From Octopus vulgaris (Eukaryota), in contig OX597835.1 in the NCBI GenBank assembly GCA_951406725.2, forward strand, positions 22,940,001-23,004,000: a stretch of DNA of 64,000 nucleotides, read 5' to 3'. A model generated the notes under the pieces. The model ran no database searches. It was not told the DNA's origin and saw only the letters and a program-made list of their open reading frames with translations. The translations under genes were made by a program, and so were the position numbers. Shown here piece by piece: positions 2,715-47,879 of the stretch; positions within the stretch are counted from its first letter, which is position 1; the number at the start of each line of letters is the position of its first letter.

Positions 2715-3079
2715 TATCATTTCCTGTTAAATCATTAAATGATGAAATTATTAATAAATAATATCACTGAATTCTAACTCACTACTTGAGTCAGTTCACT
2801 GTTATTATGCTTGAAAATGGAAGGAAGAAACAAATTCTGAGAAATTTATTTGACAAAATGTCAAAAATTAACATACATGCCAGAAGTTCTTTCTAAAATG
2901 AGGCTGAACTTTGTTTCTCACACAGAAGAGTGCTTAGTTCCAGTTTTTGACATGACAAATAGTAACACTATTTCAATAGTTGATTCATATGGTTAAGGAT
3001 TTGGCAACAAGTGCAGATATATGGTATTTATCAATTTATCAATACCTCTTGACAATCTGTGATATTGATTTTTTTCCAG

Positions 3080-3247
3080 AAACTGAGAAGGTATATGAAT
3101 GTGACCTAGTGATTATTGCCATGGGTTTTCTGGGACCAGAAAAAGACATTCTCAATGAACTGGAAATAAAACTTGATCCCAGAGGCAACTGCGAAACTCC
3201 CAAAAATAAATACTCCACAAATATCCCTGGTGTTTATGCAGCTGGAG
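3080..3247 (+). CDS. GLT1: Glutamate synthase internal exon
   Basis: ttccag/gtaagt; 168 nt, (E)TEKVYECDLVIIAMGFLGPE...YSTNIPGVYAAG; phase 1 to 1. Confidence 0.95.
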
Positions 3248-3939
3248 GTAAGTAAATACACCTTTTTTTTTACCTTTATGTTAAATTTGGATTTATTTTT
3301 ATTTCTGACCTGTGTAGTTGGACTTACATACTGAACCAAATGTTTTTTTTTATATTTTATTGTGAAGGTCACAGGCACTGCCTTCCCATTGACAAATTTA
3401 TTAAAAAGGGACCCCCTTAATTTTATTACTGGGGAAAACAGATATAGCCACTTAAAATTTCACTACCTTTAGTAGCAGAATGAAGGTTTATTTACCAATC
3501 TATCTTTTGTTAAAGAATGTCATGTTTGAAACTATTTTTTGTTAAGATATGTCAAGTTTATTGAGGTACTGTGACTTTCAGAAAATACCAATTCTAATTT
3601 TTTGGTAGATATTTAACATCACTACTGGAATAATCACCTTCTTAGATGTAAATATTGTTTTTATTTCTAAAAAAAAGAAAATGAGTTTTAATTAGTGTGA
3701 AAGCATTATAATTGTTAATAATTAATTTCAGAGACATAAAGGTAGCAAGCTGGTAGAATTATATATACACACATCAGACAAAATGCTTAGTGGCATTTCT
3801 TCCAGTTCTTTATCTTTTGAATTGAAATTCTGTCAAGGATGTTTGCCCTTTGTCCTTTCTAGATTGATAAAATAAGTACTATTTCCTCTTTCCATCAAAA
3901 ATTGCTGGCTTTGTGCCAAAAGTATTATTATTATTATTA

Positions 3940-4231: not shown

Positions 4232-4755
4232 TTATTATTCATATACACACAACAGATTAGACTGATGGAAAAGAAAAAATCCTAACATTGGGCTACAACA
4301 AGTAACCTTAGATGCTAAGAACCCTCTTAAGTATCCCAGCTGTCCCTAATAACACTGTTCTCTGCAGCTGTACTAAACTGGGTTTTATGCCTATTTCCTT
4401 TATCCATCTGTTCAGATCTTTAGGGATAGTACCCAATGTAACTATAACTACTGGGATACATTTTACCCACACTTTCCATAGTCCCTGTAATTCAATGGCT
4501 AGATCCTGGTACTTTGCAATTTTTTCTATTCTTCTCGTATTGATTTTTTTTTTTTTCATCATTTACGACTGTAAGGTCAATTATCTAGCACTTTCTATTC
4601 CCTTTCTCTACAACTACTAAATCAGGTTTTCTAGCTTCTATTATTCTATCAGTCTGAATGTTAAAATCCCACAACATCTTGCATTTCTTACTTTCTAGGA
4701 CTCTACTAGGTTCGTGTTCATGTATTTCTTACTTTCTAGTACTTTATTGGGTTCA
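4232..4755 (-). mobile_element. 3' fragment of a restriction-like-endonuclease LINE (R4/Dong-like)
   Basis: EKIAKYQDLAIELQGLWKVWVKCIPVVIVTLGTIPK...LQRTVLLGTAGILKRVL-stop, preceded by a K.LWDFNIQTDRII..RKPDL-like segment; flanked by (TAA)n. Confidence 0.8.
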
Positions 4756-28154: not shown

Positions 28155-30065
28155 CACATTAACAAGCAACATTTGGTCAGATGAAAGCTATGTTTTTAAT
28201 AGTCCGATGACAATACATAAAATCCATTGAGAATGACTGGTTTTCGAATATATGAACTGTAAAAAGCAATATTTGCAGATGTGAGTTTCAGAGGGGTGGC
28301 CACATTAACAAGCAACATTTGGTCAGATGAAAGCTATGTTTTTAATAGTCCGATGACAATACATAAAATCCGTTGAGAATGAATGGTGTTCGAAAATATG
28401 AACTGTAAAAAGCAATATTTGCGGATGTGAGTTTCCAGAGGGGTGGCCACATTAACAAGCAACATTTGGTCAAATGAAAGCTATGTTTTTAATAGTCCGA
28501 TGACAATACATAAAATCCGTTGAGAATGACTGGTTTTCGAATATATGAACTGTAAAAAGCAATATTTGCAGATGTGAGTTTCCAGAGGGGTGGCCACATT
28601 AACAAGCAACATTTGGTCAGATGAAAGCTATGTCTTTAATAGTCCGATGACAATACATAAAATCCGTTGAGAATGACTGGTTTTCGAATATATGAACTGT
28701 AAAAAGCAATATTTGCGGATGTGAGTTTCAGAGGGGTGGCCACATTAACAAGCAACATTTGGTCAGATGAAAGCTATGTTTTTAATAGTCCGATGACAAT
28801 ACATAAAATCCATTGAGAATGACTGGTGTTCGAATATATGAACTGTAAAAAGCAATATTTGCGGATGTGAGTTTCCAGAGGGGTGGCCACATTAACAAGC
28901 AACATTTCGTCAGATGAAAGCTATGTTTTTAATAGCCCAATGAAAATATATAAAATCCGTTGAGAACAACTGGTGTTCGAATATATGAACTGTAAAAAGC
29001 AATATTTGCGGATGTGAGTTTCCAGAGGGGTGGCCACATTAACAAGCAACATTTGGTCAGATGAAAGCTATGTTTTTAATAGTCCGATGACAATACATAA
29101 AATCCATTGAGAATGACTGGTGTTCGAATATATGAACTGTAAAAAGCAATATTTGCGGATGTGAGTTTCCAGAGGGGTGGCCACATTAACAAGCAACATT
29201 TCGTCAGATGAAAGCTATGTTTTTAATAGTCTGATGACAATACATAAAATCCGTTGAGAATGACTGGTTTTCGAATATATGAACTGTAAAAAGCAATATT
29301 TATGGATGTGAGTTTCCAGAGGGGTGGCCACATTAACAAGCAACATTTGGTCAGATGAAAGCTATGTTTTTAATAGTCCGATGACAATACATAAAATCTG
29401 TTGAGAATGACTGGTTTTCGAATATATGAACTGTAAAAAGCAATATTTGCGGATGTGAGTTTCCAGAGGGGTGGCCACATTAACAAGCAACATTTGGTCA
29501 GATGAAAGCTATGTTTTTAATAGTCCGATGACAATACATAAAATCCGTTGAGAATGACTGGTTTTCGAATATATGAACTGTAAAAAGCAATATTTGCGGA
29601 TGTGAGTTTCCAGAGGGGTGGCCACATTAACAAGCAACATTTGGTCAGATGAAAGCTATGTTTTTAATAGTCCGATGACAATACATAAAATCTGTTGAGA
29701 ATGACTGGTGTTCGAATATATGAACTGTAAAAAGCAATATTTGCGGATGTGAGTTTCCAGAGGGGTGGCCACATTAACAAGCAACATTTGGTCAGATGAA
29801 AGCTATGTTTTTAATAGTCCAATGACAATACATAAAATCTGTTGAGAACGACTGGTGTTCGAATATATGAACTGTAAAAAGCAATATTTGCGGATGTGAG
29901 TTTCCAGAGGGGTGGCCACATTAACAAGCAACATTTGGTCAGATGAAAGCTATGTTTTTAATAGTCCGATGAAAATACATAAAATCCGTTGAGAACAACT
30001 GGTTTTCGAATATATGAGCTGTAAAAAGCAATATTTGCGGATGTGAGTTTCCAGAGGGGTGGCCA
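28155..30065. repeat. Tandem array, 13 units of 146-147 bp
   Basis: Unit starts cacattaacaagcaac at 28155, 28301, 28448, 28595, 28741, 28888, 29035, 29182, 29329, 29476, 29623, 29770, 29917; few substitutions per unit; stops in all six frames. Confidence 0.97.
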
Positions 30066-34256: not shown

Positions 34257-35110
34257 GCAATGGGTAAGTTGTCACCATTTTATATTTTTAATTTCGTGCA
34301 TGTGCATTGATTGTTTTTGATTTTGTCGACTACACAGTATAGTAGGGTCAGTTGGGCACCGTCTGTGAGAAAAACAGCACCGTGCCAGAAATTTGGAAAT
34401 GACATGCTGTACTTCTTGGCATTTGCACTAGAATCTCCAGTACGAACATTTCAGAGTGTTTGGATGTCAATCTAAGGATATGTACCAAGAGTGATAAAGA
34501 TCAAACATCCAGTCAACATCATGGTGTTTGGAGTGATCACTAGTAATGGCAACATTATGCCTCCATTCATCTTCTCACATGGCCTCAAACTTAATATGGA
34601 GGCCTACAGCAAATGCCTGGAGGAGGTAGTGCTGCCCTGGGCTAAGAGGGTGGCTGCTGGAAGATTCTATGTCTGGCAACAGAACTCTGCACCATATCAT
34701 ACAAGCAGGAGAACCCAGTCATGGTTGTCAGACAATTTCTGTGACCACACTACCCCAAACATTTGGCTACCTAACTCCCCAGACTGCAACCCCCTTGATT
34801 ATTGTGTGTAGGGTGCAGTTGAGTGAGAGACCAACAAAACTCCTTGTAACACCAAAGATGATCTGAAAGCAAGGATTATGGCAGCATTCACCAACTTAAA
34901 CAAGGAAACTGTCCAGAAGATTTACAGGAGATTCTGATGTCTTCTGGAGGCCGAGATTGAAGCCAATGGCGATTTTATTGAATAAATTTACTCTTTAGTA
35001 TTTCAAGATATTTTTATGTATTTTTCGTAAATATATCTGTTAGAATGAAATATCTGTGTTATTTTCATTTTTGTGCAATTTAGGCAACAGATTATTCACT
35101 ACACCCTGTA
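34251..35110 (+). mobile_element. Internally deleted Tc1/mariner-superfamily transposon
   Basis: KHPVNIMVFGVIT...WQQNSAPYHTS...WLPNSPDCNPLDY transposase motifs; diverged TIRs tagggtgcaatgggtaagttgtcacc / ggcaacagattattcactacaccctgta with TA ends. Confidence 0.85.
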
Positions 35111-35249
35111 CACACACACACATTACCAAAACATTAGCATATATTACATACTACAATAAGCATATACAATGTATTAGGTCAAGAAATTAGCATACATAAT
35201 GTGTTAGCATAAGAAATTAACACAAATAACGTATTAGTATAGGAAACTA

Positions 35250-35533
35250 TTGCAGCGTGGAAGGTGTTTGTAAGCCATTTAAGAAACATACAAAATCCCT
35301 TCGATTCACTTTAACATTTAAGTTTAATTTGTCAAAATATTTTCGTCGCTAAAATCCGCGACCTGTTCACTGACAAAGGTCGCGGATTTTAGCGACGAAA
35401 ATATTTTGACAAATTAAACTTAAATGTTGAAGTGAATCGAACGGCTTTTGTGTGTTTCTTAAATGGCTTACAAACACCTTCCACGCTGCAATTGTTTTCG
35501 TTCCAGCACACGATCTCAGATCAAATCCCTTGC
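35250..35533. mobile_element. Fold-back Penelope-like insertion
   Basis: Inverted arms of about 115 bp (35250-35365 / 35377-35492), hammerhead at the axis, flanking direct repeat tataggaaacta at 35238-35249 and 35534-35545. Confidence 0.75.
35328..35377 (-). ncRNA. Minimal type-I hammerhead ribozyme with G3:C8 core variant
   Basis: Minus strand: tttgtca GTGAACA g gtcgc-ggatttta-gcgac GAA Aatatt t tgacaaa; 7-bp stem I, 5-bp stem II, palindromic stem III (aatatt). Confidence 0.7.
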
Positions 35534-36114
35534 TATAGGAAACTAGCATACATGAAATTATATAGTGCATGTGTGTGTGTACACACATACAAGTACACAT
35601 ATATACACAAGGTACAATGACTGTGAGATATAGATACTAAATTACTTACCTCAAGGCTGCAAATTCAAATCTTTATTCACAGTTCACCTGTTGCACACCT
35701 TTCCTAAGAATGCTTGTTCCTGTTTATCTTACTACACAAAACCAAAATTCTCTTCAGACTTTCCAATTGAAATGATTAACAGTAAGAAAAGCAGTCGTGG
35801 TGGTGGTGGTGGTGGTGATCGGATGGATCAATGGATAATCCACCCCACTCATGTATGTATGATCCAAACAACAAAAAAAAAAGAGGGAAAGTTAACTTAC
35901 CATCCTTGTATTGTAAAATGAGGTGATGAATCCAAAGAAAGGGCGTGGTTTCACTTCACTGGTGAGTCATACTGGCAATAGTGTGACCTCGGTGTAGAGC
36001 AGCAGAAATTTGTTAAGGTAGAATGGTTACAAGGGGAACTGGCTGATGAGAATCAGTGAGCTGAGAATACTGTTGGTGGTCAAACAGCTTTGGTCAGATG
36101 TGAATGAGTGTATT

Positions 36115-44958: not shown

Positions 44959-47330
44959 CTGCATTGATAAACAATAAAAAAAAGAAATTAAACACACAAT
45001 AGATACTTACTTTAAACTAATTACAATGCAACATCAAGGAATATGAGACATTTTGGCTCAGCATTTGTGGAACTGCTTATTTGGCATTGCAATTTCAACA
45101 CTGGTTCATTTGACATCAAACCTTCTAAAGCTTTCTAGTTTCTTGCTCTTTAACTCTCTCTCTCTCTCTCTCTCTCCTCCACCTTCCTCCTCTCTTTCTC
45201 TGTGTTCATGGGTGTGAGCATATTTCTCTCTTTGTGTCTGAAGAGAGGGAAACTGTTTATGTCAACCGTATTCAATTAATAACTTGTAATGTCTCTTCTC
45301 CTCCTCCCCCTCTCTCTCTCTCTCTCTCTCTGTATTCTTTTGTTATTTTACTTGTTTAAGTCACTTGACTGCGGCCATGCTGAAGCACTGCCTAAAAGGG
45401 TTTCAGTCAAAGAAATCGACCCTAGGACTTATTCTTTTGAAGCCTGGTATTTATTCTATCAGTCTCTTTTGCTGAACTGCTAAGCTATGGGGATGCAAAC
45501 ACACCAACACTGGCCATCAAGTGATGATAGTGAGACAGAGACATAAAGACACGCACATAATAACTATATATACATATATACATACACACACACACACACA
45601 CACACACAATGTGCTTTTTTCAGTTTCCTTCTATTAAACCCTCTCAGAAAGCTTTGCTCAGCCTGTGACTATAGTAGAAGACACTTGCCCAAGGTGTCAA
45701 ATAGTGGGATTGAACCTGAACCATGTGGCTGCAAAGCAAGCTTCTTATTTCTTTATTGCCCACAAGGGACTAAACATAGAGGGAACAAACAAGGACAGAC
45801 AAAGGGATTAAGTCAAATACATCGACCCCAGTGCGTAACTGGTGCGTAATTAATCGACCCCGAAAGGATGAAAGGCAAAGTCGACCTTGGCGGGATTTGA
45901 ACTCACAACGTAACGACAGACAAAATACGGCTACGCATTTCGCCTGGTGTGCTAACGCTTCTGCCAACTCGCCGCCTTCTTACCACACAGCCACACCTGC
46001 GCCTATATTTCTGTGTGTTTGTGTGTGGAAAAGAGGAGGATTGAATGTGGGTATATACATATATGTGTGTGTGTGTATATAAGAGATTGTGTGTGTGTGT
46101 ACATAAGAGATTGTGTGTGTGTGTGTGTGCGTGCGCGCACACACACACACACACACACACATAAGGGATTGAATGTGTGTGTTTCTGTCCCATTGTTGAA
46201 TTTTAAATGAGTGTCCTCAAACAAGCAATGTCATTCATTTCCAATCTTTATGAAGACATGTCCAGATGTGTAGAAACATAAACTGCTTCGGGAACAATTG
46301 AGGATTGGCCTAAGAAATTCTGTTTTGATCCACACAAGCATGGAAAAGTGATGATGATGATGATGATGTCTATAAATTTCTGTAAGCATGTGCATATCAT
46401 TTGCGAATGCAGTACTGGAAAAAGATGTAAACTGTAGCAAGAAACCCGATAAACCAGTGATTTCATATGAAAATACCTTGAGTGATATTTGTTCAGTCCC
46501 CATTGCACAGACAATTTCATGTCACTCACATTACCACAAACTAATGATTACTCCAATGGATAGTGAGGCAGAGCTAAAAACACGAGGATCCAATGGAGAG
46601 AAGCAGAAAGGTCAGCCCAAAGTCGAAAACAGTGGAGAAAAGTCATTGAGGGCCTATGATCTATAAGAAGCAGAGAGGCTTAAGTAATAAAGCCTCCACC
46701 TTGAAGAGTAACTTACTAGTTGTAGCCATGACCAAAGGCAACCCTAAATAACCACAAAGCTAAAAGTTTGAGAAGAACAATGGTACAGTCACTTAATGAT
46801 TTCTAATATGTCACCCACTGTAAAAAGTCAAGCTCCTTCCCAAGTCATATAGACTTACAGAGCCACTTTCCTGGTTTCCATGGCATATAAATTCCCCACC
46901 TGGATGGGACGCCAGTCCCTTGCAGGGTTAACTCATTTTTGCCAGCTGAGTGGACTGGAACAATGTGAAATGAAGTGTCTTGCTCAAGAACACAATGCAT
47001 CACCCAGTCCAGGAATTGAAATCACAATCTTACAATCATCATTATCATCATTGTTCGACCATGGTCAAGACAATGGAATTTACCATGCTACGCCAGACTT
47101 CACGGTCCATCATAGCATTATGGAGGTCCTGTTGCTGGATGCCTGTATCCCTGGAAATTACGAGTAGATGGCTTCCAGAGGAGAAGAGTAGAAATTGCCT
47201 CGTTTTCAGCTCTACAACAATCATGAGTTCTACACCCTGACTGCTAATCCACGCACCTCCACAGAAATATGCACACCAAGGTAAAATAAAAGAAAAAAAG
47301 TAAAAAAAAAAAAAGCAATACATTACTTAC

Positions 47331-47573
47331 AGGTCCAAGTCGGTAGAAAACTTTCAAGCCAGAAGTAGGAGGTGGTTGTTTTATTTTAAAGCGGCACGAA
47401 TCGACACCAATATTTCTAAGAAAGAAGAATTTTTCATAGGTCTGACCCACTTTGATTTTACCAAACTGAAGCTCTTTCACAGATAGTTCAAGGGACTTGC
47501 TAAGTTTCATCCTGTCCTTTTCTTGGAGAGACGAACCAGCGAGTCTGCTATCGATCGGTTTGACATTGTGAGA
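47331..47573 (-). CDS. SPAG17: SPAG17/PF6-like exon, start of C-terminal PapD-like domain
   Basis: catttccag/gtaagt; 243 nt, phase 0-0; ...LQFGKIKVGQTYEKFFFLRNIGVDSCRFKIKQPPPTSGLKVFYRLGP resembles the vertebrate SPAG17 motif [28 protein letters not shown] (recalled, not aligned). Confidence 0.85.
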
Positions 47574-47879
47574 CTGGAAATGAAGACAGAATTAAGAGAC
47601 CAAAAGATACTGGCAAGAAGACGCACTGACGCACATGAAATGCAGTGCAAATGCACTCAATACAAGTGTTGGTTTGTTTATGTCCCTATAGCTTAGTGGT
47701 TCTGGAAAAGAGACCAATAAAATCGGTATCAGACTTTAAAAAAGGGTAAGTACTGGGAGTCAGTCAGTTTGATTAAACTTTTCAAGATGGTGCCCCAGCA
47801 TGGCCACAGTCCAATGAGTGAAAACAAGGAAAAGGTAAATGATGAAACCCTTGCTGCCAACATAAAAGGGGTCACAAAT

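Follow-up and report, generated by a model that had tools for sequence, protein, structure and literature searches.

A hammerhead motif with a G3:C8 core pair was found on the minus strand of the window, i.e., the whole 64,000-nucleotide stretch of Octopus vulgaris DNA analyzed here (contig OX597835.1), within a terminal repeat (pLTR) fragment of a young Penelope-like retroelement (PLE) with a C-terminal GIY-YIG domain. The explanation that fits best, and that we regard as probably right, is a short inverted pLTR insertion with a naturally occurring G3:C8 pair, derived from a family whose ribozyme likely cuts slowly and with assistance and is predicted to be inactive in the window copy, where it lies in a 121-bp hairpin. 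The motif and the insertion that carries it are composed as follows.

35238..35249, plus strand: target-site duplication, 12 bp, left copy, TATAGGAAACTA
35250..35377, minus strand: arm 1, a pLTR piece that spans from hammerhead stem I to the first of two 3′ ends common in the family
35276..35278, minus strand: ATG that opens the element ORF in long copies (MAYKHLPR... in copy L096)
35328..35377, minus strand: minimal type I hammerhead motif with a G3:C8 core pair, an extra G between A9 and G10.1, and a palindromic stem III
35377-35371, minus strand: stem I, 5′ strand, TTTGTCA
35370, 35365, and 35364, minus strand: core residues G3, C8, and A9, respectively
35363, minus strand: extra G before stem II
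35362-35358 and 35349-35345, minus strand: stem II, GTCGC and GCGAC, with an 8-nt loop
35344-35342, minus strand: GAA
35341-35336, minus strand: palindrome AATATT (stem III)
35335, minus strand: U17
between 35335 and 35334, minus strand: predicted cut
35334-35328, minus strand: stem I, 3′ strand, TGACAAA
35377..35536, plus strand: arm 2, inverted, a pLTR piece running from A9 into a tail of about 60 nt
35534..35545, plus strand: target-site duplication, 12 bp, right copy, whose first three bases also match the element tail

The motif has a 7-bp stem I and a 5-bp stem II, and with G3 and C8 it departs from the literal CUGANGA core (C3 and G8), while positions 3 and 8 are Watson-Crick paired and the rest of the core (U4, G5, A6, A9, GAAA, and NUH) is intact. 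It bears the marks of minimal type I PLE hammerheads as defined in PMC4209133, namely, an extra base between 9 and 10.1, a G10.1-C11.1 pair, and a palindromic 15.2-16.2. The extra base, to which a sequence-only reading of this DNA had drawn attention, is therefore present (G 35363) but not unusual, being a described hallmark of Penelope hammerheads (PMC4209133). On folding, the isolated 50-mer formed stems I and II (z, −3.4), and a descriptor allowing any Watson-Crick 3:8 pair, with a stem II of ≥5, a palindromic stem III, and a stem I of ≥6, gave one match in the window and none in 300 dinucleotide shuffles. The same reading had described a complete hammerhead with three stems. This holds for stems I and II, but stem III is only an intermolecular palindrome, so that three intact stems are true of a dimer only; the AAUAUU self-duplex forming that dimer helix is AU-only and very weak (−0.2 kcal/mol). 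Its expectation that CUGANGA searches miss the variant was correct, because a G3:C8 core does not fit CUGANGA descriptors. In an Rfam scan, the hammerhead models were silent at this site at an E value of ≤1, and only microRNA and snoRNA look-alikes were matched.

The motif is central in a 121-nt inverted repeat (96%; 35244-35364 and 35377-35497), which the sequence-only reading had passed over. Arm 1 starts ~17 bases into the likely transcript, arm 2 is without G3-C8 and the 5′ strand of stem I, and the ATG of the window copy has just ~25 bases of element downstream. Across the window locus, the pairing probabilities of stems I and II were 0.000 each, and folding prediction put the penalty of forming the hammerhead within the 121-bp hairpin at 46 kcal/mol. 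The window motif is also without a dimer partner, its sole neighbor missing the 5′ half of the core. The idea of dimeric cleavage after UUU was thus upheld only in part: the architecture and U17 fit published Penelope hammerheads (PMC4209133, Fig. S3), but the window copy is predicted to be sequestered, and its partner is incomplete. Burial in the hairpin is predicted to leave the ribozyme of this copy inactive, and the locus is likely an ordinary, inert transposon fragment. A non-LTR retrozyme was rejected as its source, since a retrozyme needs short head-to-tail hammerhead repeats, and the window shows just two stem II matches, in inverted orientation.

Directly to the left of the insertion (34476-34990) lies what we take to be a Tc1/mariner-like transposase remnant (no Pfam match). 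Elsewhere in the window, we observed two exon-like pieces, one with a flagellar PapD-like domain (47247-47591, minus strand) and one from a pyridine nucleotide-disulphide oxidoreductase (2980-3252, plus strand), and a 147-base unit repeated 13 times in tandem at 96% identity (28155-30065).

The stretch carrying the motif is a high-copy repeat of the genome (1,433 candidates, 40 of them scored), with arm lengths and centers that vary between copies. Upstream of non-inverted copies come ~1 kb of untranslated sequence and then an ORF ending in GIY-YIG. In one full unit (L097), hammerheads at 4737 and 8998, 4,261 bases apart, lie around the ORF, and an inverted truncated copy stands before the unit. 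In L096, the ORF starts at the ATG within the terminal repeat, ~56 bases past the predicted cut, and in one copy, the ORF is open over about 1,000 codons. The element protein has a GIY-YIG match (PF01541, 25.5 bits versus a cut-off of 22.6), a CX3CxxC linker (CQSNCAVC), and a YVDD motif with conserved flanking motifs. Its alignment profile matched a reverse transcriptase (RT) structure weakly (E, 7e-5), whereas Pfam RVT_1 had no match to the element ORF and remained below cut-off for the protein of a sister family. Tandem pLTRs, inverted 5′-truncated copies, and a tail are all present, as in EN+ PLEs. The Neptune and Nematis EN+ PLEs (Craig 2021, PMC8557442) likewise have a C-terminal GIY-YIG, a CX2-5CxxC linker, (TA)n targets, and partial tandems with an inverted 5′-truncated copy, but they have DKG where the octopus family has DKS. 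A MITE or fold-back DNA transposon was rejected as the source, because the arms are unequal, the centers are variable, and the parent is a retroelement. A metagenome search found no relatives, and the pLTRs are known from the octopus genome and the contigs of four runs. A different Penelope-like element, with RVT_1 and weak GIY-YIG matches, adjoins one family copy (L062:1727-4165).

The genome was searched with a 20-base core-spanning pattern with N at positions 3, 7, and 8, and the listed matches were tallied by eye. There were 7,079 matches, and none in the control; among the 100 listed, G3 and C8 occurred together in 95 and C3 and G8 in none, and 93 read GTGAACA, the heptamer of the window motif. 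A second pattern, built to avoid the main family and accepting C or G at positions 3 and 8, matched 960 times, and the 100 listed comprised 91 C:G, 8 G:C, 1 G:G, and 0 C:C. Among the rows listed for the contigs of the four runs, which are labeled as four organisms, neither position 3 nor position 8 showed a variant at the 5% level.

In an alignment of 17 representatives, positions 3 and 8 were paired in every row (CG in 8, GC in 8, and UG in 1), with a covariation score of 0.308 versus 0.155 for shuffled alignments (reached by 0 of 500) and ≤0.135 for slid ones. Stem II was 95% paired, with one A-U/G-C exchange, although its conservation is favored because the rows were hand-picked from pattern matches. 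Pairing was weaker in stem I (59%) and stem III (73%), in part owing to misaligned or decayed old copies. U4, G5, A6, G12, A13, and A14-type positions were fixed or nearly so, while loop II, N7, and the flanks varied. Since related families of this genome retain C3:G8 while 17 of 17 rows have the two positions paired, we read G3:C8, from these comparisons of sequence, as a natural and old compensatory swap. The natural G3:C8 variant that the sequence-only reading proposed at 35377-35328 is thus as described, kept across copies and covarying with C3:G8 relatives. In a tree of 20 rows built with positions 3 and 8 masked, a 100/98 branch separated the 10 C3:G8 rows from all 9 G3:C8 rows; the tree counts two changes because a long-branch row (L242) sits on the G3:C8 side. 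The G3:C8 lineages are 66 to 87% identical to the window copy, and the swap was probably one event, kept while the repeat drifted to that identity. The 3:8 covariation itself probably reflects this single event, so that the many copies are not independent.

Other families in the genome carry related motifs. A young, high-copy sister family with 56% protein identity has a hammerhead at the equivalent position, with C3:G8, in 27 of 30 loci. All 40 of its motifs from these 27 loci carry A9C, so that the clade holds another core variant besides G3:C8. The family (L191:2285-2336 and other loci in L189-L218) thus combines C3:G8 and A9→C with U at 17, and its older relatives (L279 and L281) have A9 and C17. 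An older, decayed family has a GTGACCA core and a different loop II; a core pattern matched in 14 of its 38 extracted arms, 8 of which have G3 and C8. In DNA flanking two loci (L003:1179 and L072:2630), motifs resembling hammerheads have a U3:A8 pair together with a perfect 6-base palindrome, which suggests a third 3:8 pairing in the octopus genome. In addition, two copies of another canonical family with shared upstream sequence (L291:1494-1545 and L293:1491-1542) turn into (TC)n exactly where the cut is predicted; this may be a trace of copying from a 5′ cleavage product, or the repeat may simply belong to the element.

Much of the octopus motif is already described for the minimal type I hammerheads of metazoan PLEs (Cervera and de la Pena 2014, PMC4209133), which share its pLTR location, extra base, G10.1-C11.1 pair, and palindromic stem III, in which U17 is allowed and common, and which have many solo and opposite-strand copies. 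However, those hammerheads have C3:G8; all 56 representatives in Fig. S3 of that paper have C3 or U3, with U3-A8 as the sole named covariant. The extra base is G in the octopus family and H in that consensus, and the octopus stem I is longer, at 7 bp. The Poseidon element PAc of Anolis carolinensis (Frangieh 2024, PMC11167929) resembles the octopus family in having a pLTR hammerhead near the ORF start, two internal RT starts, a tail, AT-rich targets, and copies made from uncut RNA. The octopus family differs from Poseidon in its CX2-5CxxC linker, absent there, its ~60-base tail, and a hammerhead wholly upstream of the ATG; moreover, the C3G/G8C combination is a laboratory rescue mutant in PAc and the wild type in the octopus family. 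A compensatory 3:8 change in nature is also on record among core variants (Perreault 2011, PMC3088659), but the one named is U3-A8. In the literature searched, G3:C8 appeared only as laboratory mutants (PMC11167929 and PMC8495972), and the PLE-hammerhead survey of Lunse et al., which lies outside that literature, could already describe a natural case. What would be new here is a natural G3:C8 pair in a successful family; the other traits (extra base, G10.1-C11.1 pair, palindrome, and U17) have been described before.

The ends of the copies bear on how they are made. Copies with a 5′ leader gave 1,216 matches; among 100 listed, 30 run on into the upstream element, and 29, as judged by eye, have the A of TCAGAT as their first base. 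A G precedes 22 of these 29 starts where the element has C, and five of the 22 lie directly after TA runs. RTs copy the cap as G, and the extra 5′ G is likely a copied cap, placing the transcription start 23 bases before G3, while some of the 5′ Gs are explicable by junction microhomology. A spliced-leader origin of the G is disfavored, since the bases preceding it vary from copy to copy, and promoter spacing was dropped as a reason for G3, since the start-to-G3 distance varies between subfamilies. The bases just 5′ of the likely start (L061:7640-7670 and equivalent positions) look like a branch point together with a 3′ splice site, and there may be an intron near the start, as in Drosophila Penelope. 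The 3′ ends were bimodal, with 21 and 24 of 53 arms ending at points ~60 bases apart, and an inverted arm lay upstream in 30 of the 53. The Anolis element has two internal RT start sites that give a tail (PMC11167929), and the two 3′-end clusters match two such starts, so that short copies span the intact hammerhead to the cap. The window copy is an inverted pair of this kind, with a minus arm from stem I and a plus arm from A9.

Put together as a mechanism, transcription would begin at the A of TCAGAT, 23 bases 5′ of G3, so that the hammerhead would come after the cap but ahead of the ORF start and of both internal RT start sites. From these sites, uncut RNA would be reverse transcribed as far back as the cap, yielding abundant copies of 130 to 215 bases, and fold-back or template switching would turn some into inverted pairs like the window copy. 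The swapped pair would retain the core geometry at lower speed; as a cut would strip the cap, the element would tolerate the ribozyme only if it were slow and depended on a dimer or on protein for help.

The 5′ ends of full-length copies gave pairing probabilities of 0.93 for stem I and 0.998 for stem II. Copying of cut RNA would be expected to make 5′ ends accumulate at position 1.1. We found no clear pile-up there, with 5 clear and ~7 ambiguous cut-site starts among the 100 listed of 305 copies, and no clear peak among TA-run copies at 27 distinct loci, of which 3 start at the cut site, 4 at +7, and 3 at +4. Copies read through the uncut site. The 3:8 pair positions the catalytic 2′-OH of residue 8. 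G8C costs about 10^5-fold, with partial rescue by C3G (PMC8495972), and C3G/G8C partly restores cleavage in the Anolis PLE hammerhead (PMC11167929). The latter cuts only with the help of protein, and insertion does not depend on its cleavage, uncut RNA being the main template (PMC11167929), and PLE motifs with a canonical core cut poorly in vitro even as dimers (PMC4209133). By analogy with these systems and from the copies themselves, the family ribozyme likely cuts slowly, if at all.

A hammerhead descendant that no longer cuts but has been retained for some other role at the RNA 5′ end (for example, in protein binding, as a promoter, or in translation control) would also accord with copies made mostly from uncut RNA and with a cut site lacking a clear pile-up. 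We consider this unlikely, although several observations lean its way. Catalytic mutants left insertion in vitro unaffected, and no RNA ends were found at the Anolis cut site (PMC11167929); the young sister family carries the further core change A9C; and the core lies ≤30 bases from the likely start, a region of internal promoter elements in Penelope (PMC2377424). However, reciprocal substitution of positions 3 and 8 would be expected only where their pairing, which belongs to the active conformation, matters, the core positions are near-fixed beside a variable loop II, N7, and flanks, and the differing start-to-G3 distance of the subfamilies speaks against a spacing-dependent promoter element. 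Slow, assisted cleavage was ranked above such a relic because the reciprocal 3:8 change and the fixed core point to selection on an active fold.

A fully active dimeric ribozyme of the type proposed for PLE hammerheads and retrozymes, which would convert tandem transcripts to RNAs of unit length or to circles, is improbable. Tandem pLTRs do set two hammerheads 4.3 kb apart on one transcript, and stem III is palindromic, as in the model of PMC4209133. On the other hand, the AU-only dimer helix is weak, the copies read through the site, in vitro activity is low even with a canonical core (PMC4209133), and the swap rescues only partly (PMC11167929 and PMC8495972). A chance look-alike from the palindromic center of a MITE-like fold-back DNA transposon is scarcely credible: the 121-bp inverted repeat with its target-site duplication and the absence of an Rfam hammerhead call would suit it, but the arms are unequal and the centers differ, the same motif occurs in copies that are not inverted and in each of the two pLTRs of full-length retroelements, sister families have a canonical core at the same position, and the two pLTR hammerheads of L097 together with the C:G and G:C pattern counts in relatives refute it.

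The natural G3:C8 pair has consequences beyond this locus. Surveys based on CUGANGA miss whole high-copy families, as the reversed-pair lineage stayed transpositionally successful, and a single genome offers matched natural variants for testing what Penelope hammerheads do. Tentatively, octopus PLEs may tune their 5′ hammerhead down, with weakened but paired cores being favored by the position of the ribozyme, which lies 3′ of the cap and 5′ of the ORF and of the RT start sites. The ribozyme would then serve as a decapping switch that is slow and triggered by protein, and the family studied here would have the first natural G3:C8 hammerhead to be described. If so, the tuning would have taken the form of G3:C8 with U17 in the window lineage and, independently, of A9C with U17 in the young sister family, and the sister with a canonical core would serve as a built-in control.
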